IMG/VR virus record: IMGVR_UViG_3300044612_000719
Span: 33,276-97,275 of that record
Strand: one strand, 5' to 3'
DNA length: 64,000 nt
Origin: a virus
The notes under the pieces are model-generated. The model saw nothing but the letters and a program-made list of their open reading frames with translations. It made no database searches and had not been told where the DNA came from. Positions 21,815 through 62,617 of the stretch are shown here, piece after piece; within the stretch, counting starts at the first letter, position 1, and each line of letters begins with the position of its first letter. Both the position numbers and the translations under genes were made by a program.

Positions 21815-23505
21815 TAAACTTCAAAACCTGGTAACTGTAGTTGTTCACTTTTAGAAGCAGTTTTAGCATTAACACGGTCTTGGTAGAATTGACGTGCTTC
21901 CCTACCTGCTGTTCTTAAACTCTTATTTGGGTTGCTATCAATAGCATTACGAACGTGCTCATGGGCGTCGTATAAGTGACCCAACATTAGTTTATTAGCA
22001 AGGTCTCGGGTTGGTCGGGTTTCATCTGCTGTGGAATGACGCATAACTAATTGCTTGCGTGTAGGTGTTTCTCTAAACACTTTAGGATCAGCAACAGCGC
22101 TTGCGTGGGCACGCACTGCCGAGTACACAGCCCTTTCAGTATTAGTAGTCCAACGACGGTGTCCTGTAGTGTATCCAGAACTGGCGTGTAGATCACCTAC
22201 ATCACCAGTTTCAAACATTCTTTGTGAATACTTGTTGTTATCATCTGCACTACCCCATAGATCCCTATGAGCATCAGCAATACCTTCTGATACAGGGTCT
22301 GCCCCACCTTTGTCGTAAATGTCAAAACGATGCTTATTATCCATTTTGTGACCCATCTCATGGATGATGGTAGAGCGAGACACACTTGGATTTGTTTTTG
22401 TCACAATGGTTTTACCACGAACTGTTTTTTCAACAGGGGTTCCCCCAGTTACTTCACTTCGTGTATGCCATGTTTTTTCTGACCACCTGTTTGCACCATA
22501 CCCATATACACCAGCGTATGGTTCTACAGCAACATTTGGGTTTTTCTTTTTAATGTCAGAACCTGTTCCAGAAAATGCATTTATTTGATAACCCTTTTCA
22601 ACAAAGTCTTCTGCTTTAATATTTTGAGCATTTACTTGTTTGTTTCCACCAATCATGTTTGGTGCTTTAGGAATCTTCTTTTCAATTTCTCCGACTGTGT
22701 TGTATCTTGAATAAGAGCGAGTGCCTGGTTTGTCTTTTTGCGTCCATTGACGACCTTCAGGGGTAGTGACAACTGCACCAGCCCTTAATGCATCGTTAAT
22801 TGGCAGGCCCATGCGGTGAGATTGTTCATCACCTAAATCTTTACTTAATTGTTGAATAAACTTAGGATTGTTTATCGGTGTCTTGTCGCCACCTGTTATC
22901 ACTGTACGGGTAGTGTCAGGTTCTTTGGAATAGGTTTTTTCGTAGTTTAATGGTTGACGAATAACATCAATTCTTCCAGAAGTAACCCCTTCAAGACTCG
23001 CTCCTGGGAATGTATTGTCAATGTGCCCTGCATGTCTTACGTCCTCAACAGCCACTGCTAACGCTGGCTGTTTGTTTGCAAACTCTGAATTAATCATGTG
23101 GGTAGACATTTGAGAGGTATCTACGGCGTGGGTGTAGGCATTACGTGAATCTTCGGCAGTTTTCTTGCTCAAAGGTTTTCCAGTCAAATTCCTAGTACGA
23201 GCCACACCAGCATTTTTACGGTAGGTCTCAAGATCAGACATTCCTAGACCTTTTTGAATTGCTTCAATGCGCTTTTCATGAGGGATCAACGGGTCATTGC
23301 GTCTACCCGTACCTGTTTCAGGACTGAACAACATTCCTTGTGCGTTAACAGTTCTTGCTTGAGCACGTGCCGCAATACCTGAAGTTTGTTCTATTTCGTA
23401 CTTATGTTTACCTTCAGCAAAACCATGAGGGTTAAGCAAAGACGCATGAGTCTCACCTTGGTCATCATGCCAGTAGGTGTTTTCAAACTGTCGTCCAAGA
23501 GCCAT
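21814..23505 (-). CDS. Large protein with HExxH zinc-metalloprotease-like motif; leaderless
   Basis: TIIHEMGHKMD...SEGIAD; MALGRQF N-terminus; QLQLPGF C-terminus; TAAACT-N6-ATG. Confidence 0.65.
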   Translation of the reverse strand: MALGRQFENTYWHDDQGETHASLLNPHGFAEGKHKYEIEQTSGIAARAQARTVNAQGMLFSPETGTGRRNDPLIPHEKRIEAIQKGLGMSDLETYRKNAGVARTRNLTGKPLSKKTAEDSRNAYTHAVDTSQMSTHMINSEFANKQPALAVAVEDVRHAGHIDNTFPGASLEGVTSGRIDVIRQPLNYEKTYSKEPDTTRTVITGGDKTPINNPKFIQQLSKDLGDEQSHRMGLPINDALRAGAVVTTPEGRQWTQKDKPGTRSYSRYNTVGEIEKKIPKAPNMIGGNKQVNAQNIKAEDFVEKGYQINAFSGTGSDIKKKNPNVAVEPYAGVYGYGANRWSEKTWHTRSEVTGGTPVEKTVRGKTIVTKTNPSVSRSTIIHEMGHKMDNKHRFDIYDKGGADPVSEGIADAHRDLWGSADDNNKYSQRMFETGDVGDLHASSGYTTGHRRWTTNTERAVYSAVRAHASAVADPKVFRETPTRKQLVMRHSTADETRPTRDLANKLMLGHLYDAHEHVRNAIDSNPNKSLRTAGREARQFYQDRVNAKTASKSEQLQLPGFEV

Positions 23506-27690: not shown

Positions 27691-27816
27691 GCGTCACGGG
27701 TCATCTTCGGATGGCTCGTGGCGCTCATAGAGCACTGGGGTTCATCCCCTGACTCCAGTGCTGTATGAGCGCAGAGCGCTCCGCTGGCAACCAGCCAGCG
27801 CAGTCCTGAGGAGGAC
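27691..27816 (+). repeat. Class I intergenic RNA element + SD hairpin GTCCT-GAGG-AGGAC
   Basis: H1 GCGTCACGGGTCATC-TTCG-GATGGCTCGTGGCGC; H2 GCGCTCATAGAGCACTGGGG...CTCCAGTGCTGTATGAGCGC. Confidence 0.75.
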
Positions 27817-27823
27817 ACACACC

Positions 27824-28342
27824 ATGAAAGCAACACGACAGCAACTACTCAATCTCGGAGCCAGCATCCTGAGCACTGCCTATGAAGGCGGGTCTTGCGG
27901 AATGGCTTCATGGGCAGTTGCCAATGGCACCTACAAGTGGGGCACGGAGAAGGGCGAAGGCGAATTGCACGGCAACGAGCACTACGCATCAGTCACCGTG
28001 TACGACACCGAAGCGTGCGAGTTGGTGGAAGACGAAGCCGAATTGGCGAAGTTGACCGATGACGATGGCTTCAATGGCTGGGGCGGGTTCTACCGCTTCG
28101 GCAAGCCACTCGTGATCAATGAGTCCATCATTGCTGACTTCATTGAGAAGATCGGCACAGGTGAGTTCAATCAGGACAATGTGCCTGACTACGGTCAACT
28201 GTCAATCAAGCGGGTGAGTGCCCTTGCAGGGTGCTACCTGTTCGGTGAAGACGCCATTGACGAATTTGAGTCCGACAATGACTGCATCGTGTCTGACACC
28301 ATCGTGCAGTTCATCCTGCTCGGTGAGGTCACATACGGCTGA
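27824..28342 (+). CDS. Early hypothetical protein (ends D..V.D.IVQ..LLGEV.YG)
   Basis: GAGGAGG RBS; start moved to MKATRQ. Confidence 0.75.
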   Translation: MKATRQQLLNLGASILSTAYEGGSCGMASWAVANGTYKWGTEKGEGELHGNEHYASVTVYDTEACELVEDEAELAKLTDDDGFNGWGGFYRFGKPLVINESIIADFIEKIGTGEFNQDNVPDYGQLSIKRVSALAGCYLFGEDAIDEFESDNDCIVSDTIVQFILLGEVTYG

Positions 28343-28346
28343 TCAA

Positions 28347-28427
28347 TCCCCCAGCGCCTAGGGCGTGGCTCTTCAATGAGCACTGGGGACTGTGAGCAAC
28401 CGCTCACTACAACGACCTGAGGAGGTC
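28347..28427 (+). repeat. Class II intergenic element (three-way junction with TTCAAT loop) + SD hairpin
   Basis: CCCCAG-CGCC.TAG.GGCG-TG-GCTC.TTCAAT.GAGC-A-CTGGGG; then GTGAGC/GCTCAC; GACCT-GAGG-AGGTC. Confidence 0.75.
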
Positions 28428-28433
28428 AACACC

Positions 28434-28841
28434 ATGAACACACTCACCAAACTGTACGAGATTCGTTTCTCGGGAACGGTTGAATGCGATATGGAGCCGA
28501 TCATGCACGACATTGCAGTCGCAATTGATAAGGGCACGCTGGAAGAGAGCGACAAGGCGTTTGCCGAGTTCGTAATGGCTCCACAGCGGATCGTGGTCAA
28601 GCGTCAAGGTAACAACACCTACGCAGTGGATCTGTCCATTGAGGGCGTGATCGCATTCGCCAAAGAGGTTGCCTATCGCAAAGAAAATGCGATTGACATC
28701 CGTACCGAGGAGGGCAGTTATGACCGAAACGGTTACAACTACCACACCAAAGTGATCCGTCAACTTGACACCGCATTGAAGGGCGCCAACAAGGTGCTCG
28801 CCAGTGTCGGTATCGCTCCAGTGACTTCATACTGGAATTGA
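28434..28841 (+). CDS. Early hypothetical protein
   Basis: SD hairpin then ATG (MNTLTK). Confidence 0.75.
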   Translation: MNTLTKLYEIRFSGTVECDMEPIMHDIAVAIDKGTLEESDKAFAEFVMAPQRIVVKRQGNNTYAVDLSIEGVIAFAKEVAYRKENAIDIRTEEGSYDRNGYNYHTKVIRQLDTALKGANKVLASVGIAPVTSYWN

Positions 28842-28847
28842 GTGATT

Positions 28848-28941
28848 GAGTGACCTAGTCACTCACCCCTAGCGCCTCGGGCGTGCCGATTCAATTCGGA
28901 CTAGGGACTGGGCAAATAGCCCTCGGAGCAGAGGAGGCTCC
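28848..28941 (+). repeat. Class II intergenic element + variant SD hairpin
   Basis: CCCTAG-CGCC.TCG.GGCG-TG-CCGA.TTCAAT.TCGG-A-CTAGGG; GGAGC-AGAGGAG-GCTCC. Confidence 0.75.
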
Positions 28942-28946
28942 ATACC

Positions 28947-29483
28947 ATGAAAACATCAGAGATAAAGCAGATAATTGCAAAGGATCCGAACGCTGTGTTT
29001 CGCATTGGCGGACGTGGTCGGTACACGCACTACGGCTCAATCACCAAGATTGAGGAGAAGGTCGTGGACACCTACAGCGCATGGGGTCGTAAGTCAGGCA
29101 CCCGTGTTGATGTGCGATTCACAGTGCGTTACGAGTACTTCACTCGTGGCGTTGAGGCTCAGTTTGGTTACCCCGAGAAGTTGCCTTCAGTGATACTGGA
29201 CGGAAACTCGTGGACTAAGCCACGTGACATTGAATGGCACGTAGCGGACTTCGGTATGACCATTGAGGAGTACGTAGCAAAGACTGATGCTGAAGTGAAG
29301 GCGGATTGGCAAGCCAAGAAGGACGACCAATACGCAAAGCAACAGCAGGTCAATGCGATCATCCGACACATCAGTAGCCCAACGGTTACCGATGCCGAGT
29401 GGAACGAACTCAACGATGATCTAGAGCGACTCAGTGTTCAGACATTGCAATTAATCAATCAGAAGATCGCATCACTTGTGTGA
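28947..29483 (+). CDS. Early hypothetical protein
   Basis: ORF track, strong RBS. Confidence 0.75.
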   Translation: MKTSEIKQIIAKDPNAVFRIGGRGRYTHYGSITKIEEKVVDTYSAWGRKSGTRVDVRFTVRYEYFTRGVEAQFGYPEKLPSVILDGNSWTKPRDIEWHVADFGMTIEEYVAKTDAEVKADWQAKKDDQYAKQQQVNAIIRHISSPTVTDAEWNELNDDLERLSVQTLQLINQKIASLV

Positions 29484-29489
29484 TGTGGT

Positions 29490-29597
29490 CGGGAGCATCA
29501 CGGGTTCGCCCGTGGTGCCCTCACAGTGCATCGGCGTTGTGTCGGTGCATTGTGAGGGCATACAATTGCCCGTTCAACTAACAGACCCGAGGAGGTC
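29490..29597 (+). repeat. Class I intergenic element + SD hairpin
   Basis: GCATCACGGG-TTCG-CCCGTGGTGC; GCCCTCACAGTGCATCGGC...GTCGGTGCATTGTGAGGGC; GACC-CGAGGA-GGTC. Confidence 0.8.
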
Positions 29598-29601
29598 AAC
29601 C

Positions 29602-29856
29602 ATGGATGCAAGTATTCACAAAGTAACTGGGTTTCGGATTGAGAAGTCCGATGACCCACGACTCAAGACAATTGATCTCGTGATTCAATACGAGGATTTG
29701 TCGTTTGTTCGTTCCCAATATGAGAACGGCAGTGAGTCATTCGGTTACGCAAAATTGGAGTCCACGATCACGCTGTTCATCAGTGACACCGTTGACATGG
29801 ACGTGGTGGTGTGGCAAGCAATTGCAAACCTCACTTCCGATCTTGCCAATAGGTGA
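29602..29856 (+). CDS. Early hypothetical protein
   Basis: SD hairpin then ATG (MDASIH). Confidence 0.7.
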   Translation: MDASIHKVTGFRIEKSDDPRLKTIDLVIQYEDLSFVRSQYENGSESFGYAKLESTITLFISDTVDMDVVVWQAIANLTSDLANR

Positions 29857-29868
29857 GTAATCCGCAGT

Positions 29869-29978
29869 GGGCAGTCATGGCGCAAGCCATGGCGTGCTCG
29901 GAGTGCACTGATCCCCCATCGGTGCATTCCGAGGACGCAAGTCCATTCACATTCCCTAACTGAAACTTGAGGAGGTTT
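29869..29978 (+). repeat. Class I intergenic element (sequence-diverged) + SD hairpin
   Basis: GTCATGGC-GCAA-GCCATGGC; CTCGGAGTGCACTGAT...ATCGGTGCATTCCGAG; GGAC-GCAA-GTCC; AAACTT-GAGG-AGGTTT. Confidence 0.75.
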
Positions 29979-29979
29979 T

Positions 29980-30696
29980 ATGGGAGCAATAACACCAAAG
30001 CAACAGGCATTCATTCGCACGATGCTCTTAGAGCGTGCTGTCACACTCGGTCTTGATGAGGCTGGTGTTGACCAGTACCTCGTAGATCAGAACGTGAATG
30101 CATTGTCAACTAAGGATGCTTCGCTCGTCATTGATGCGATCAAGAAGATTGAGATCAAGCGAGTGGGCACCGAGCACCTGCCGAAGGGTGATCGCACCAT
30201 CGTCAACAAGATCGCCAAGCCATGCCAACTGTGCGGACACACCGTGCAGATCGGTCATGGCTGGAGCGTTCAAGTTGCCAGTGGCTGGCAGACATTCCAC
30301 AAGGCTGGTGAGTGTTCAGCCGAGGTCATCGCCAAGCCAGTAGATGAGCAATCGCTCTTCGCTGATGTCAAGGATGGCTTCTATGCGTTGCAGTCAACGG
30401 GCACCAATGATCTCGTGTTCTATGCGATCAAGACCAACAAGGGCTACCACAATGCGAGCCTGAAGGGTCAACGTGGCATGTACATCGTGGTCGGCGGTCA
30501 CGCTGACGAGAAGTTGCGTGGCGAGCGCTTGGTCAATTCAATCAAGCGCATCACGTCACTCAGTGAGGATGAACGCAAGCAAGCAATGACGCTGTACGGT
30601 CAGGAGATCGGGCGCTGTTGTGTGTGCGGTCGTCATCTCACTGATGAAGCAACACGCAAGGCTGGTATCGGCAACGACTGCGCAAGCAGGTTCTAG
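29980..30696 (+). CDS. DUF6011-like zinc-binding protein
   Basis: ITPKQQAFI; CQLCG; C-terminal GRCCVCGRHLTDEATRKAGIGNDCA. Confidence 0.75.
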   Translation: MGAITPKQQAFIRTMLLERAVTLGLDEAGVDQYLVDQNVNALSTKDASLVIDAIKKIEIKRVGTEHLPKGDRTIVNKIAKPCQLCGHTVQIGHGWSVQVASGWQTFHKAGECSAEVIAKPVDEQSLFADVKDGFYALQSTGTNDLVFYAIKTNKGYHNASLKGQRGMYIVVGGHADEKLRGERLVNSIKRITSLSEDERKQAMTLYGQEIGRCCVCGRHLTDEATRKAGIGNDCASRF

Positions 30697-30701
30697 GTAG
30701 T

Positions 30702-30807
30702 CACGTCACGGGCACACGCTCGTGGCGTGCTCACATTCCATGGGAGCGATCTCGTGGAGTGTGAGCACGCAAGTGCAATTCACAATTCCAATAGACCTGA
30801 GGAGGTC
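30702..30807 (+). repeat. Class I intergenic element + SD hairpin
   Basis: CACGTCACGGGC-ACAC-GCTCGTGGCGTG; GTGCTCACATTCCATGGGA...TCTCGTGGAGTGTGAGCAC; GACCT-GAGG-AGGTC. Confidence 0.8.
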
Positions 30808-30812
30808 AGACC

Positions 30813-32342
30813 GTGAGTAATCAATTAGAGCAATTAAATACATTGCTTGGTTCACTGCATCGCATACCACCAGCAATCATTGCTGATCCTGCGTTGCTTG
30901 AATTGAGCAGTGCACATGACGGCGAATGCCCAGTGGAACTCGCTGTTCCGCTGTTCCCATTCCAACGTGCTGGTGTCGCTTATGCATTGAAGCAGAAGCG
31001 AGTGATCATCGGTGACGAGATGGGACTCGGCAAGACACCGAGCGGTATCGCTGTTGCGGTACAGGCAGTCAATGAGAAGCACAAGGTGCTCGTAGTAGTG
31101 CCACCATCGCTTCGCATCAACTGGCTTCGCTCATTCAAGATGTTCGCACCATGGCTCAACGTGGCTGTGGTGACGGGCAACAAGGTGGGCGCTCTGCCGA
31201 AGGAGCCAGTAGTCATCATCGGTGACTCCAACATTGACGCTTGGTCAATCAAGTTGGCTGGCAAGTTCGGTGCGCTCATCGTTGACGAGGCACATCGTGC
31301 CAAGACCGAGAGTGCTGGACGCACCAAGGGCATCTCATTCATTGCGAAGTCAATCCCTGAGGAGGGATACGTCACGCTGTTGAGTGGCACCATCATCGTC
31401 AATCGTCCGAACGAATTGATCAGCCCGCTGAATATTCTCGGCAGGCTTGACCGAGTGTTCGGTGGCAAATCAGCGTTTCGCTTCCGCTACTGCGATCCCA
31501 TTCACAATGGCTGGGGTTACGTGTACAACGGTGCGAGCAACACCACTGAGTTGAACGAGAAGTTGCGAGGCACGTGCTACGTGCGCCGTAACAAGTCGGA
31601 CGTGCTCACCGAGTTGCCTGCCAAGCGCCGTGCACAAGTAGCGACCGAGATCAGCGACAGCGATCTCAGCGCATACATGCACGCCGAGAATGACTTCCGT
31701 GACTTCGTTATCGCCAATGGCGGTGCTGAAGCATGGCAGAAGGCATCCAAGGCTGAGACCATCACACGCCTCAATGCACTGCGCATGTTGCTCGGTGTTG
31801 CGAAGGTGCCATACGTGGTGGATCACGTTGAGCAACTAGTTGCTGAAGGTGAGAAGGTCATCGTGTTCGCACATCACAAGGATGTCATCGCACGCTTGAC
31901 TACAGCACTCACTCCGCATGGCGTGGTGCGTGTCATCGGTGGCATGAGCGATGAAGCCAAGCAAGCATCAGTGGATGCATTTCAGAATGACCCCGAGGTC
32001 AAAGTGTTCATCGGGCAATTCCAATCTGCTGGTGTTGGTCTCACGCTCACAGCGTCATCGCACGTTGTGTTCGCTGAGATCCCATTCACGCCTGCCGAAG
32101 CCACGCAGGCTGAGGATCGTGCGCACCGCATTGGTCAGACGTCAAGCGTTCTCGCTTGGTGGATGATCGGCGTGGGTAATAACCCTGACATCCCGTTGCT
32201 GGACGATCGGATGTGGGCATTGCTCAACAGCAAGCACGAGGTCGTCTCCAGTGTTCTCACTGGACAGGGCGAAGACATGGGAGCCGAGGGTGGAAGCATC
32301 ACTCAGGCACTCATTGAAGCAATTGTCGGCAACGGCATCTGA
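30813..32342 (+). CDS. SNF2-family (SMARCAL1/HARP-like) helicase/annealing ATPase
   Basis: IIGDEMGLGKT; IVDEAH; LLSGT; GVGLTLT; QAEDRAHRIGQ. Confidence 0.9.
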   Translation: MSNQLEQLNTLLGSLHRIPPAIIADPALLELSSAHDGECPVELAVPLFPFQRAGVAYALKQKRVIIGDEMGLGKTPSGIAVAVQAVNEKHKVLVVVPPSLRINWLRSFKMFAPWLNVAVVTGNKVGALPKEPVVIIGDSNIDAWSIKLAGKFGALIVDEAHRAKTESAGRTKGISFIAKSIPEEGYVTLLSGTIIVNRPNELISPLNILGRLDRVFGGKSAFRFRYCDPIHNGWGYVYNGASNTTELNEKLRGTCYVRRNKSDVLTELPAKRRAQVATEISDSDLSAYMHAENDFRDFVIANGGAEAWQKASKAETITRLNALRMLLGVAKVPYVVDHVEQLVAEGEKVIVFAHHKDVIARLTTALTPHGVVRVIGGMSDEAKQASVDAFQNDPEVKVFIGQFQSAGVGLTLTASSHVVFAEIPFTPAEATQAEDRAHRIGQTSSVLAWWMIGVGNNPDIPLLDDRMWALLNSKHEVVSSVLTGQGEDMGAEGGSITQALIEAIVGNGI

Positions 32343-32343
32343 C

Positions 32344-32523
32344 CACTGGCGCTCGGCGCCTTCATGGTCGGTGCCTGTAGCGACATCCGAAGCGTTTAGT
32401 CCTCACTGGACGCTTCACAGTGCATCACGGGCGCAAGCCCGTGGTGTTCTCACACTCCATTGGCATATCGTTGGTGGAGTGTGAGAACATCACCCGATGT
32501 TCAACTAGCCCTTTAAGGAGGGG
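32344..32523 (+). repeat. Extra three-way structure, then class I element + SD hairpin
   Basis: CACTG...GAAGCGTTTAGT-CCTC-ACTGGACGCTTC..CAGTG; GCATCACGGGC-GCAA-GCCCGTGGTGT; TGTTCTCACACTCC...GGAGTGTGAGAACA; CCTTT-AAGG-AGGGG. Confidence 0.75.
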
Positions 32524-32526
32524 ATC

Positions 32527-32766
32527 ATGAAAGTAAGTCACGCAATTAAATTATTGAGTGAGATCAATCCTGACGAAGAGATTGCTATCTCTTGGTGGGA
32601 ATCAAACCTGTTCACCATTAGTGACAATAACGAACCACTACCAGCAGACTCAGAACTGTGGCTCAAAGCAGTCTCAGTGTTTGATGCCAACGGTGGTTAT
32701 GACAGTGTCAACCAGTTGGTGTGGGATTACCTCAATTACGACATCAAGCAAGAAGGAGAGTTCTAA
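32527..32766 (+). CDS. Early acidic hypothetical protein
   Basis: ORF track, RBS. Confidence 0.7.
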   Translation: MKVSHAIKLLSEINPDEEIAISWWESNLFTISDNNEPLPADSELWLKAVSVFDANGGYDSVNQLVWDYLNYDIKQEGEF

Positions 32767-33152
32767 TGAGCAACAACGAAACACGACCTACTGAGGGGTC
32801 AATCATCAACTTGGTTGACGTAGAAGGGAATCAATCAAAAATGAAAGTATCGGGAATCGGCACACCAATTGGTGCGTGGGCAATCATCCAATGGAAGGAC
32901 ACGCAACAGGAGGACGAGGTGTACATCTCGTTCGGCACGTGGAATGAGAACGAGTGGGGCGGTGAGTTTGACTCACTGGGCAACCGAGACGATGAGGTCT
33001 TCTTCTACTGCGAAGACGGCGAAGAGGAACTCAAGGCGCTCGTGGGCAGTAGCAACGAAGACTTCGTGGTCTTGTCGTACGACATTGACTACAGCATCCC
33101 ATTGGTACTCGCTGATATGGACGAGCCAGTCTTCGCTGAAGACGGGGAATGA
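32766..33152 (+). CDS. Early acidic hypothetical protein
   Basis: TAATG coupling, AAGGAG RBS; very Asp/Glu-rich. Confidence 0.7.
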   Translation: MSNNETRPTEGSIINLVDVEGNQSKMKVSGIGTPIGAWAIIQWKDTQQEDEVYISFGTWNENEWGGEFDSLGNRDDEVFFYCEDGEEELKALVGSSNEDFVVLSYDIDYSIPLVLADMDEPVFAEDGE

Positions 33153-33269
33153 TCGGGAGCATCACGGGCTACGGCTCGTGGTGCCCTCACAGCACATAAA
33201 TTCTGTTTGTGTGTTGTGAGGGTACAGAGTGCCCGATAAATTAGTTAATCCCTATGACCTGAGGAGGTC
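33152..33269 (+). repeat. Class I intergenic element + SD hairpin
   Basis: GCATCACGGGC-TACG-GCTCGTGGTGC; GCCCTCACAGCAC...GTGTTGTGAGGGT; GACCT-GAGG-AGGTC. Confidence 0.8.
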
Positions 33270-33271
33270 TT

Positions 33272-33631
33272 ATGTTAGAGCCAGTAATCACGATGACCGT
33301 TGAGCAATGGGAAGAGCAATACGAACCCTTTGTTAATCACCTAGATGCGGATGCATCATGGGCAACCGATGACGCCAACGGCATCATGTTTGAGACATAC
33401 GGTGCCGAAGTTGATTATGTGTTTGCCCGACCGCTCAACCACACATGGACATATGTGGACGGCGAAGAAGGCACATACATTCTTGCTGGACGCCATCTCG
33501 TAAATCGCATCGGTTACTTCGTAACTGCGGTGCCATGGAAGGATGACTTCAACACCAAGTATGAAATTCAAGTAAGTGCCAATGATGATTATTACCAAAC
33601 AGTGTTAGACCTTGAAGGAGGTAACCAATGA
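33272..33631 (+). CDS. Early hypothetical protein (FETYG.E...WT.VD...G.H.VNRIGY family)
   Basis: Recurrent phage motif; SD hairpin. Confidence 0.75.
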   Translation: MLEPVITMTVEQWEEQYEPFVNHLDADASWATDDANGIMFETYGAEVDYVFARPLNHTWTYVDGEEGTYILAGRHLVNRIGYFVTAVPWKDDFNTKYEIQVSANDDYYQTVLDLEGGNQ

Positions 33632-33858
33632 AACAACCAACAACATACATCACCACACTTGCTGTTGAAGTAGGCATGGAAGTAGAACTACTTGTGCAGA
33701 TATCTCCGAAGGAGACATTTGAATACGCAGGCATCGTCTCACACATCAGCGAGACCGAGTTGTCAATGTGGACTACAGACAGTCCGAACGACACCTACGA
33801 GAACGAGCGTGAGATTGACATCCCACTCTCAAAGATCATCTCAGTGGACGTGTTCTGA
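33628..33858 (+). CDS. Early acidic hypothetical protein
   Basis: AAGGAGG RBS in a variant hairpin. Confidence 0.65.
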   Translation: MKQPTTYITTLAVEVGMEVELLVQISPKETFEYAGIVSHISETELSMWTTDSPNDTYENEREIDIPLSKIISVDVF

Positions 33859-34109
33859 TGATCCTCGGTGGGTACCCAGTAGTGCGCAGGGACTTGGTGG
33901 AGGCGGATCTTTTGATCCCCTCCGTCAATACCAACGAGTACTACGGGGACGAGCAACTGTCCAAGATGAAGTACATCGGCAGTGTCAATGAGCAGTTTGA
34001 AGATGACGACTCGGGCGCTTACATCAAGTTCTACGCACCTGAAGGTCATGTCGTGTATCTGTACAACATTGACTTAGATTGGATTGAAACATCGTTAAGC
34101 GAGTCCTGA
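33858..34109 (+). CDS. Early acidic hypothetical protein
   Basis: TGATG coupling. Confidence 0.65.
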   Translation: MILGGYPVVRRDLVEADLLIPSVNTNEYYGDEQLSKMKYIGSVNEQFEDDDSGAYIKFYAPEGHVVYLYNIDLDWIETSLSES

Positions 34110-34123
34110 GAGGCTCGTACGAA

Positions 34124-34245
34124 GGGTGACATCAGCCTCGGCTGGTGTCATCCCGTGAGCACTCCCCTTGATCCGCCTTGGGGAGTGTTCACGGGGTGAA
34201 GCAACCCTGCAACACCCATCAACAACAATGATCTGAGGAGGTCAT
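34124..34245 (+). repeat. Class I intergenic element (diverged) + SD hairpin
   Basis: GGTGACATCAGC...GCTGGTGTCATC; CCCGTGAGCACTCCCC...GGGGAGTGTTCACGGG; ATGATCT-GAGG-AGGTCAT. Confidence 0.75.
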
Positions 34246-34491
34246 ATGAAGCAATGGAATGTCACACTCTCGCTCCAAACGGGCGTGTATCTAGAAGGAG
34301 TCAATGCAAAGGATCCACTGGCACTGTACGAGGGCGACCTTAGTTACAGCGCTGTGGTCACAGCATTGATTGATCAATTGCAATCAGGTCAAGCAACACT
34401 TGACTGGGTCGTAGAGGAAGTGGAAACACTGGACGGCGTCACCGTATGCCGTGACGATGAAGATCATGTATGGATGGGAGACGTGGTATGA
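34246..34491 (+). CDS. Early hypothetical protein
   Basis: ORF track, SD hairpin. Confidence 0.65.
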   Translation: MKQWNVTLSLQTGVYLEGVNAKDPLALYEGDLSYSAVVTALIDQLQSGQATLDWVVEEVETLDGVTVCRDDEDHVWMGDVV

Positions 34492-36835: not shown

Positions 36836-37197
36836 ACCGTTGGGATTACTACGATGATGCGGGGGAGTCAAATCCCCCGCTACATTGGGAACTCACAATC
36901 AACAGAGACATCATAGATCCGTTGCCATTCCCCGATAGTGGTGTGTGGCGTGCGCATTCATCGTGTCGTCACGAAGATGTGTCTACCTTCTTTGCTACTG
37001 GCGAAGCGGGTTACACACGAGAAATAAGAAGTAAGCGATTGGAAGCCATTTCAATCTGCAAAGGCTGTCCAGTGTCATTCCAGTGCCTACGCTATGCCGT
37101 CAAGAACGACATGCGCTGGGGCGTGTGGGGTGGCAAGGATATGCAGTCGCTTGAAAAGGTTGAGCGTATTAAGTTACGCAAGATCTTCAATAAGTGA
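36832..37197 (+). CDS. whiB: WhiB-family Fe-S transcription factor
   Basis: W....C.....FF...AISICKGCPVSFQCLRYA...GVWGG. Confidence 0.9.
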   Translation: MNRWDYYDDAGESNPPLHWELTINRDIIDPLPFPDSGVWRAHSSCRHEDVSTFFATGEAGYTREIRSKRLEAISICKGCPVSFQCLRYAVKNDMRWGVWGGKDMQSLEKVERIKLRKIFNK

Positions 37198-39196: not shown

Positions 39197-39613
39197 TTAA
39201 GGCTGAATCAACCTGAACTTAAGCATCTCTAAATCGGTCAGTTCCACACCCATTTTAGGAATCTCTTGAATATTTATTTCATTAATCTCTTTTGAGTCAG
39301 CGTCTACACATTCAGTGCAACGACAACCTTGTCTGTAACGAGTCCATGTACCGTGTGCACGAAGTACACTTGCTTTTGGATGTTCAACAGTGAGCGCTGT
39401 TCGCTCCTGTGGTGTGAGTCCGCCCCACAATCCCCACTTCTCTTCAAGCCCATCGTCTAAACATTCTTTCCACACAGGGCACTGACGACATACTGCTCTA
39501 GAAATTACATAGTAATTCTCTGGTACGTCAGTATCTAGTGGTGGGTACCAAAGATCAATGTGACGGTCTTTGCACAAAGCATCAATGCGCCAGTCGTCTT
39601 GATGGTTAGGCAA
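39197..39613 (-). CDS. whiB: WhiB-family transcription factor with extra C-terminal HG....Y..GCRC..C zinc motif
   Basis: WRIDALC...VCRQCPVWKECL...GLWGGLTPQER. Confidence 0.9.
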   Translation of the reverse strand: MPNHQDDWRIDALCKDRHIDLWYPPLDTDVPENYYVISRAVCRQCPVWKECLDDGLEEKWGLWGGLTPQERTALTVEHPKASVLRAHGTWTRYRQGCRCTECVDADSKEINEINIQEIPKMGVELTDLEMLKFRLIQP

Positions 39614-61788: not shown

Positions 61789-62257
61789 CCATCAACCTCT
61801 GATCTACATTTGTTGAATTTTTCCCCTTCTTGATTTTATTACTCTTGTTAGTTACTCTTGATTGGGTGTCACCCGTGACACTACTAGTGGTGTCTCCCGT
61901 GACACTACCTAGTGTCTCCACAGTCACTACTAGGGGTGACTCGTGTGTCACTAGTGGGTTGTTAAAGTTGACGTAGTAGCGGTTCGTCAAGTTCTTGTTG
62001 TTGCGGGTCACACGGTGTTGCTTGACAATCAAACCAATCTCTTCCAGACGCTTCATAGATCGGATCACCGTACGGCGGTCACACCCCAACTGGTCAGCAA
62101 TGTGCTGGTACGAGGTTGTCAACTCTTGGGTGTCAGGGTGCAGGTACTGGAGCATGTGGTTCAGCACGGCATGCGAGATGTAGTCCGTAGCGATGTATGG
62201 GAGCACCCATCTTGGGACAGGTAGAAAGGGTCCACTCAACTTATTGTTTCTTGCCAT
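61772..62257 (-). CDS. Phage replication initiator (lambda O-like wHTH) containing iterons
   Basis: F..VPRW; SYQHIADQLGCDRRTVIRSMKRLEEIGLI...N.Y; internal VTGDT repeats; GAGGAG RBS before MARNN. Confidence 0.8.
   Translation of the reverse strand: MARNNKLSGPFLPVPRWVLPYIATDYISHAVLNHMLQYLHPDTQELTTSYQHIADQLGCDRRTVIRSMKRLEEIGLIVKQHRVTRNNKNLTNRYYVNFNNPLVTHESPLVVTVETLGSVTGDTTSSVTGDTQSRVTNKSNKIKKGKNSTNVDQRLMDEKSI
61866..61951. repeat. Four palindromic iterons GTG(T/A)C-N6-G(A/T)CAC; probable phage origin, with adjacent AT-rich tract at ~61805-61862
   Basis: Copies at 61866-61881, 61890-61905, 61912-61927, 61936-61951. Confidence 0.75.
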
Positions 62258-62311
62258 AACGCTCCTCAGGTTGTTATCTAGGGTCGCCATGCTACACTCT
62301 CGCCAGCGCTT

Positions 62312-62340
62312 TTAGCACTTTCCTGATCGGGTGCTAAAGT
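62312..62340 (+). promoter_or_regulatory. Promoter of the candidate sRNA, embedded in an inverted repeat
   Basis: TTAGCA-17 bp-TAAAGT with extended TG; IR TTTAGCAC...GTGCTAAA. Confidence 0.5.
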
Positions 62341-62346
62341 GTTTAG

Positions 62347-62440
62347 AGTGTTGGGAGGAGGGCGACCTCCTCAGGACGACAGAGCGGGGGCTTTCCCTCC
62401 TTTCTCCCCCGCCCGTGTTTATGGCTCTCCTCCCAACCGC
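62347..62440 (+). ncRNA. Candidate trans-acting small RNA with two C-rich anti-SD segments
   Basis: 14-bp closing stem GTTGGGAGGAGGGC/GCTCTCCTCCCAAC (G-U on plus strand); GACCTCCTCAGGAC; GCGGGGG-CTTTCCCTCCTTTCT-CCCCCGC. Confidence 0.55.
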
Positions 62441-62452
62441 TAAACTTGTTTG

Positions 62453-62617
62453 ATGGCATCTAAAAAAGAAGTATGGGATAAACCCAATCCAAAGAAGAAA
62501 TCAGAGAAGTTGACACCTGATCAAAAGTCAGAAGCAAAGGCTCGTGCTAAAGCCGCTGGTCGTCCGTACCCAAACCTTGTTGACAACATGGCTGTCAGTA
62601 AGAAAGGTAAGAAGTAA
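62453..62617 (+). CDS. 54-aa basic protein (AKARAKAAGRPYPNLVDNM family); leaderless (not in ORF track)
   Basis: TAAACT-N6-ATG; TAATG coupling to next gene. Confidence 0.75.
   Translation: MASKKEVWDKPNPKKKSEKLTPDQKSEAKARAKAAGRPYPNLVDNMAVSKKGKK

Follow-up and report, generated by a model that had tools for sequence, protein, structure and literature searches.

A covarying structured RNA with exposed anti-Shine-Dalgarno-like loops beside the replication-initiator gene of an uncultured actinobacterial phage

Several small RNAs of the Bacillota, including RsaE/RoxS (RF01820), RNAIII and LhrC, carry C-rich motifs in their loops that pair with Shine-Dalgarno (SD) regions and block translation. In temperate phages, the c4 RNA of P1/P7 and the CI RNA of P4 are processed from leaders, control their own operons and maintain immunity, whereas T4 makes a protein, RegA, that targets the ribosome sites of numerous early messages and turns these messages off once the early phase is over. 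In actinobacteria, 6C (RF01066; B11/6C in M. tuberculosis) is a small structured RNA that exposes C-rich loops to G-rich regions of mRNAs; these loops bind messages without a chaperone, by G-C-rich pairing that involves neither Hfq nor ProQ (PMC6486639).

The RNA element described here resembles each of these systems in part. Like RsaE/RoxS, RNAIII and LhrC, it is proposed to direct more than one C-rich loop motif against SDs; however, those RNAs belong to Bacillota hosts, use a UCCC/CCCC motif and end in canonical terminators, whereas the phage RNA has neither a terminator nor an Rfam match. Its likeness to P1/P7 c4 and P4 CI is that a small phage RNA would pair with distant RBS regions of the same phage and prevent expression, but its predicted targets are at least seven separate cistrons ~30 kb away, and neither an integrase nor a resolvase was found in the phage. 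With RegA the likeness is a functional analogy only, the recogniser here being an RNA and the predicted targets sharing a structured hairpin. Unlike 6C, the RNA is encoded by a phage, forms a closed three-way structure built on a long outer stem and carries CCUCC-type anti-SD tracts in place of C runs. The 6C model was not among the Rfam matches up to E = 10 in the interval 62280-62480, where matches at E ≤ 10 were noise only (e.g., miRNA precursors and atoC at E = 3.3) and no riboswitch or other catalogued cis-regulatory family stood out above that level; in the whole window, no Rfam family reached its gathering score.

The element was found in an uncultured freshwater phage represented by an IMG/VR virus record of 97,275 bp, which CheckV rates as complete; the window analysed here is its final 64 kb. 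Since the phage carries two WhiB-family genes (36946-37140, plus strand; 39392-39592, minus strand), each over the Pfam cut-off, its host is judged to be actinobacterial, which bears out the host assignment made in a preliminary description of this DNA. The absence of an integrase and a resolvase suggests that the phage is probably lytic, and for the same reason the role in dormancy that had also been raised finds nothing in its favour. No tRNA or tmRNA genes were found, and among GenBank phages the element had no DNA match and the initiator no protein match. The element lies in the gap between the replication-initiator gene and a divergent, leaderless plus-strand gene. On the minus strand to its left, a replication module encodes an O-like helix-turn-helix initiator together with DnaC-like loader and DnaB-like helicase proteins; the plus-strand genes to its right encode a 54-aa protein (ATG at 62453, no SD) whose match to phrog_34011 starts at residue 1, a DUF6321 protein and a Dps-like ferritin. 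The initiator leader (62258-62294, minus strand) comprises the RBS CCUGAGGAGC (62261-70), ahead of the start codon (ATG, 62257-55), and a candidate -10 box, TAGCAT (62294-89), which forms part of a -10-like block that even distant relatives retain. The 3' part of the initiator gene contains, at 61842-61953, a four-copy array of a 22-24-nt unit (GTGTCACCCGTGACACTA-like) that bears internal dyads; this array, arranged as in lambda O, is probably the replication origin.

Fold, strand and conservation of the RNA

The predicted structured RNA, ~95 nt in length (62347-62441, plus strand), consists of a 17-pair outer stem (62347-63/62424-41) that encloses two hairpins. The core of the outer stem (62350-63/62424-37) is 14 nt long and 93% complementary, with one G-U pair on the plus strand, and pairing extends outward to 62347/62441; the 14-bp closing stem of the preliminary description, with its G-U pair in favour of the plus strand, is thus present. 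Folding of the element region yielded -51.6 kcal/mol with a z-score of -4.35. Related copies were recovered from uncultured phage contigs by way of the initiator protein and a DNA pattern, which gave 16 distinct sequences of about seven types. Across these sequences, every cell of the 31 base pairs was paired on the plus strand (496/496), and 10 pairs, four of them in the stem of hairpin 2, had undergone compensatory changes on both sides. The covariation score was reached by none of 500 shuffles, and only 41-57% of cells paired in controls with slid partners. Strand was indicated by the 34 G-U cells, which become A-C mismatches if read on the minus strand, and by the RNAalifold consensus energy of -46.3 kcal/mol for the plus strand versus -34.0 kcal/mol for the minus strand, which loses pairs and 12 kcal/mol. 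A covariance model detected a single copy in each genome, whereas three relatives at a greater distance had no copy. Full pairing, the 10 compensatory pairs and G-U pairs possible on the plus strand only strengthen the earlier proposal of a plus-strand folded RNA. Therefore, the alignment indicates that the element is a real structured RNA of the plus strand, with a fold that is not due to chance, and that it constitutes a new RNA family supported by covariation.

While the stems vary, ACCUCCUCAGG, ACAGAG and CCUCCUUUC are invariant across the 16 sequences. Segment 1 (62364-62377, plus strand; GACCTCCTCAGGAC) contains the first of these, which forms a 3-bp hairpin with a CCUC tetraloop and is the complement of the CCUGAGGAGG core of the early ribosome sites described below. 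The ACAGAG junction (62379-62384, plus strand) pairs in part with CCGUGU, where hairpin 2 has its base, and the corresponding pairs of the alignment (42-45 with 79-83) showed no variation. Hairpin 2 (62384-62412, plus strand) has a covarying 7-bp stem (GCGGGGG/CCCCCGC) and a 15-nt loop, CUUUCCCUCCUUUCU (62391-62405). The unpaired probability of this loop (CTTTCCCTCCTTTCT) was ~0.99 in the window and 0.95-1.0 across all versions. Two pyrimidine tracts are therefore exposed by the fold, the CCUC tetraloop and the 15-nt CCCUCCUUUCU loop. One contig (L007:2799-2914; IMGVR_UViG_3300008261_002026), otherwise the same as its relative L006, has a 27-nt deletion that takes the 3' arm of the outer stem as well as the -10 box of the adjoining leaderless promoter.

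The sequence at 62353-62372 can also form an alternative 7-bp hairpin, GAGGAGG-GCGA-CCUCCUC, with a GNRA loop, which is kept with G-U pairs in most relatives. Since this hairpin uses the 5' arm of the outer stem together with tract 1, it competes with the consensus fold; it could be the first to form during transcription, masking tract 1. Other accounts of the region were set aside. A coding reading (40-aa plus-strand ORF, 62331-62453) was ruled out by frame-breaking single-base indels, and a minus-strand terminator by the A-C mismatches on that strand and the lack of a U run after the fold. A triplex in the major groove, formed by the purine arm and the pyrimidine tracts, was dropped, since the purine arm varies and the tracts are invariant.

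A search for the element pattern in prokaryote genomes (one per species; 185,579 species) returned chance matches only, with no host homologue or prophage, and the true copies were confined to one phage group. In this respect also the element differs from 6C, which is chromosomal and conserved across Actinobacteria.

Promoters, 3' end and boundaries of the module

A putative promoter for the RNA (62312-62340, plus strand) is composed of a -35 box, TTAGCA (62312-17), a 17-nt spacer with an extended TG (62332-33) and a -10 box, TAAAGT (62335-40). These are the boxes recognised in the preliminary description, and the comparison of relatives adds that the position of the -10 box is conserved, with the start falling at the base of the stem. 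Indeed, a TAnnGT box lies 5-7 nt ahead of the first paired base in all relatives, while the spacer bases differ; this places the start at ~A62347. A strict sigma-70 scan and a terminator scan returned nothing at the element. The box and spacer are nearly duplicated at 62439-62453, just past the element (repeat D1). An inverted repeat, TTTAGCAC-N12-GTGCTAAA (62311-62338), is complementary at 8/8 positions and spans both the -35 and the -10; relatives keep this dyad with changed letters (TTTAACAC/GTGTTAAA and GGCACCA/TGGTGCT), and it could be an operator. Elsewhere in the window, the only further copy of promoter or operator sequence was a 14-nt stretch, CTAAAGTGTTTAGA (22072-22085, minus strand), which is identical to the -10 box and spacer of the RNA. 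It lies inside a 563-aa ORF with no structure after it, and the match may be due to chance.

The gene to the right has a promoter of its own (62441-62455, plus strand), in which the -10 box TAAACT (62441-46) is followed by six bases and then by the ATG at 62453 of the SD-less gene. A GCTAMAMT box is found exactly 6 nt ahead of the ATG in every relative that carries the phrog_34011 gene. Since a -10 box at exactly this distance from an ATG without an SD is the signature of a leaderless mRNA, the phrog_34011 mRNA is probably leaderless. In relatives that lack the RNA (L346 and L347), TACACT or TAGAAT is likewise followed by 6 nt and an ATG, and the leaderless promoter directly adjoins the initiator promoter. 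Because the two flanking promoters are joined directly in these relatives, the RNA and its own promoter form a separate inserted module, a unit of about 110-150 bp by this comparison. The gene downstream of the RNA varies by group (phrog_34011, a Cys-rich ORF or another small ORF), while the RNA stays beside the initiator promoter.

No intrinsic terminator, i.e., a G+C-rich hairpin with a U run, was found at 62340-62450. The flanking genes are divergent and therefore no transcript ends in the gap, and the next promoter immediately adjoins the outer stem. Since no terminator follows the stem, the RNA has no defined 3' end and transcription may continue into the next gene; the product of ~90 nt proposed in the preliminary description is accordingly a length that no terminator delimits.

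Complementarity to early ribosome sites

Five plus-strand copies of the 10-mer CCTGAGGAGG are present in the window (27805, 28416, 30796, 31356 and 33258), four of them at ribosome sites and one, at 31356, inside an ORF. The minus strand has a single copy, inside the element, where the expectation from shuffles was 0.04. Copies with one mismatch are present at 29586, 29966 and 34232 and at the initiator ribosome site (62261-70). Therefore, the segment that had been described as complementary to the early RBS hairpins is indeed so, and is the sole reverse complement in the window, while its near matches at other early RBSs and at the initiator RBS are confirmed as one-mismatch copies. The predicted target hairpins take the form NNCCU-GAGG-AGGNN and lie at the ribosome sites of early genes on the plus strand (27803, 28414, 29584, 29964, 30794, 33256 and 34230; 27803-34243 overall). 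Their stems covary (GACC/GGUC, GUCC/GGAC and, with U-G, GAUC/GGUC) in the window and in five relatives (G001-G005). The early hairpin sites are also the strongest SDs in the genome, those of the late genes being weaker. In the window and four of the relatives (G001-G004), the early strand carries 4-11 CUGAGGAGG sites per genome (with five CCUGAGGAGG copies in the window), and exactly one reverse complement is present per genome, always within the RNA.

The same region (27700-34250, plus strand) contains a second intergenic hairpin ~10-25 nt upstream of each early ribosome-site hairpin, often after TGTGAG. Examples are GTGAGC-AACC-GCTCAC and GGGCA-TACAAT-TGCCC, and similar modules are present in relatives.

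Predicted targets of tract 1 were ranked among 149 genes by duplex energy together with the opening costs of both partners; RNAcofold of the whole RNA with its targets was discarded because it cannot model pairing by loops inside the outer stem. Raw duplex energies of the early hairpin genes were -21 to -27 kcal/mol and placed them at the top ranks. After opening costs, their energies were -8.7 to -14.5 kcal/mol, compared to a median of +1.2 kcal/mol over the 149 genes, and they occupied ranks 1-5 and seven of the top nine, in a ranking with some circularity, since complementarity was how the motif had come to light. The preferential pairing with early RBSs that had been anticipated is thus reproduced when accessibility is taken into account. 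The covariation that had been looked for between the RNA segment and the stems of the SD hairpins was not found across five genomes, in which the flanks of tract 1 showed no better fit to the hairpin stems of the same genome than to those of another. The complementarity is limited to a core of 10 nt, which does not change on either side and therefore does not co-vary.

Two complete relatives extend this comparison. One of them (G005), whose initiator is 53% identical, has 15 CUGAGGAGG hairpins and no copy of the RNA. Since its hairpins are kept without the RNA, they serve a purpose of their own. Retention of the SD hairpins together with loss of the complementary segment is the very pattern that the preliminary description had named as telling against its proposal, and it makes the hairpins independent of the RNA. 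The other relative (G006) is without the motif family and without the RNA. At the corresponding locus of G005 (L342:1340-1472; IMGVR_UViG_3300032233_001072) there is an unrelated hairpin of 12 bp without mismatches, ending in a U-rich tail, and there are three TCAACCTA(A)GG copies, two direct and one inverted, one of which overlaps the initiator ribosome site. These boxes could be operators or an analogous antisense arrangement.

Possible roles of the RNA

We tentatively favour the reading that the RNA is a trans-acting anti-SD sRNA that shuts off early genes. A host-type promoter (-10 at 62335-40) would start the transcript at ~A62347, the first base of the 17-pair stem, and the resulting RNA of ~95 nt would fold into a closed three-way structure displaying two invariant pyrimidine tracts that resemble the anti-SD of 16S rRNA. 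Tract 1 (ACCUCCUCAGG) would pair with the invariant CCUGAGGAGG core of at least seven early ribosome-site hairpins ~30 kb away. This pairing may open as a loop-loop contact between CCUC and GAGG, which, at 4 nt, is a weak start. Since the pairing would cover the SD, early translation would be off once the RNA had accumulated, and tract 2 (CCUCCUUUC, in the 15-nt loop) would add a general affinity for strong SDs. The analysis shows the structure and strand of the RNA, its conservation, its promoter geometry, its complementarity and its target ranking, whereas its production, its 3' end, its binding to the messages and their repression by binding are inferred.

The stem without a terminator after it could also be accommodated by a cis-acting 5' leader, formed by read-through into the phrog_34011, DUF6321 and Dps-like genes and acting as a stabiliser or an operon switch. 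The start codon is 12 nt past the last paired base, a stem at the extreme 5' end, as here, is a classic mRNA stabiliser, and the deletion in L007 leaves the upstream promoter alone to drive the gene. However, the gene that follows retains a -10 box of its own, always 6 nt from the ATG, and lacks an SD, so that it is built for leaderless expression. Furthermore, it is this gene that changes between groups, while the RNA keeps its place at the initiator promoter, and a plain stabiliser needs no invariant loops; we consider a leader unlikely. The invariant, fully exposed loop 2 would suit a general mimic of the 16S tail, in which ACCUCCU-type tracts soak up the strong SDs of host mRNAs, so that the host is shut off and leaderless or weak-SD phage mRNAs are favoured, or serve as a decoy for a host factor or toxin with affinity for the 16S 3' end. 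Loop 2 agrees at 9-11 positions with CACCUCCUUUCU, which we take to be the actinobacterial 16S 3' tail, and its predicted binding tracks SD strength with no preference for the phage; the greater strength of the early SDs relative to the late ones points in the same direction. Thus, the 16S-tail likeness and the exposure of the second loop, as given in the preliminary description, both hold, but the particular RBS targets proposed for it are not preferred. A mimic would nonetheless require extreme abundance against thousands of ribosomes, and it leaves unexplained why tract 1 carries an invariant CAGG extension with a match to the phage motif alone. For these reasons such a role seems decidedly unlikely.

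The constant position beside the initiator promoter, from which the RNA is divergent, would suit replication control, with the RNA pairing with the initiator RBS and limiting initiator synthesis, as plasmid countertranscripts do. The perfect 9-nt match CUCCUCAGG/CCUGAGGAG gives a duplex of -20.1 kcal/mol, and CUCCUCAGG is kept in the initiator leader of all element-bearing relatives, while the RNA-less ones have different RBSs. RNA-based replication functions also have a precedent in mycobacteriophages, some of whose prophages use non-coding RNAs in replication (PMC7157519). Yet the match is shorter than those to the early genes, and the initiator, ninth of 150 targets of tract 1 by raw duplex energy, falls to 42 of 149 (-1.7 kcal/mol) after opening costs, so that its earlier listing as a possible target is not upheld once structure is counted. 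Moreover, the pattern of presence and absence across relatives reflects a single clade and therefore counts as one evolutionary event; replication control by this RNA is very improbable. A DNA-level element, either a strand-specific hairpin of single-stranded DNA used in replication near the origin or a set of protein sites upstream of the flanking promoters, would suit the distance of ~400 bp to the iteron array inside the initiator gene and the location of the invariant tracts ~50-90 bp upstream of both neighbouring start sites. DNA hairpins tolerate G-T wobble, and operator-like TCAACCTA(A)GG repeats lie at the same place in G005. On the other hand, the promoter is placed to transcribe exactly the structure, the many G-U pairs count against a double-stranded cruciform, and the anti-SD likeness of both invariant tracts would go unexplained, which makes a role at the DNA level the least probable of these readings.

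Returning to the trans-acting anti-SD sRNA, the features expected of such a regulator that were found are a seed invariant in the 16 sequences, a unique reverse complement and early genes that rank at the top after opening costs. A defined 3' end (hairpin plus U-tract) and co-variation of seed and target across genomes were not found. Accordingly, the early-gene off-switch of the preliminary description gains from the structure, strand, promoter geometry, complementarity and ranking, and loses from the missing covariation, the missing terminator and G005. In its strictest form, an early shut-off by RNA only, in which a CCUC-tetraloop reader would silence 7-15 GAGG-tetraloop early cistrons at once, perhaps assisted by the small basic proteins encoded next to it, we hold the proposal to be doubtful.

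Whatever its function, the element represents an RNA family whose promoter, strand and fold are defined. If the proposed shut-off is true, a lytic phage would time its own genes by means of one sRNA that reads a structural tag common to its early RBSs, and if it is carried out by RNA only, it would be an RNA counterpart of T4 RegA in a phylum that lacks Hfq. Few sRNA mechanisms are understood in the Actinobacteria, the host phylum, and the pair of tag and reader may offer a compact translational switch for actinobacterial genetics.
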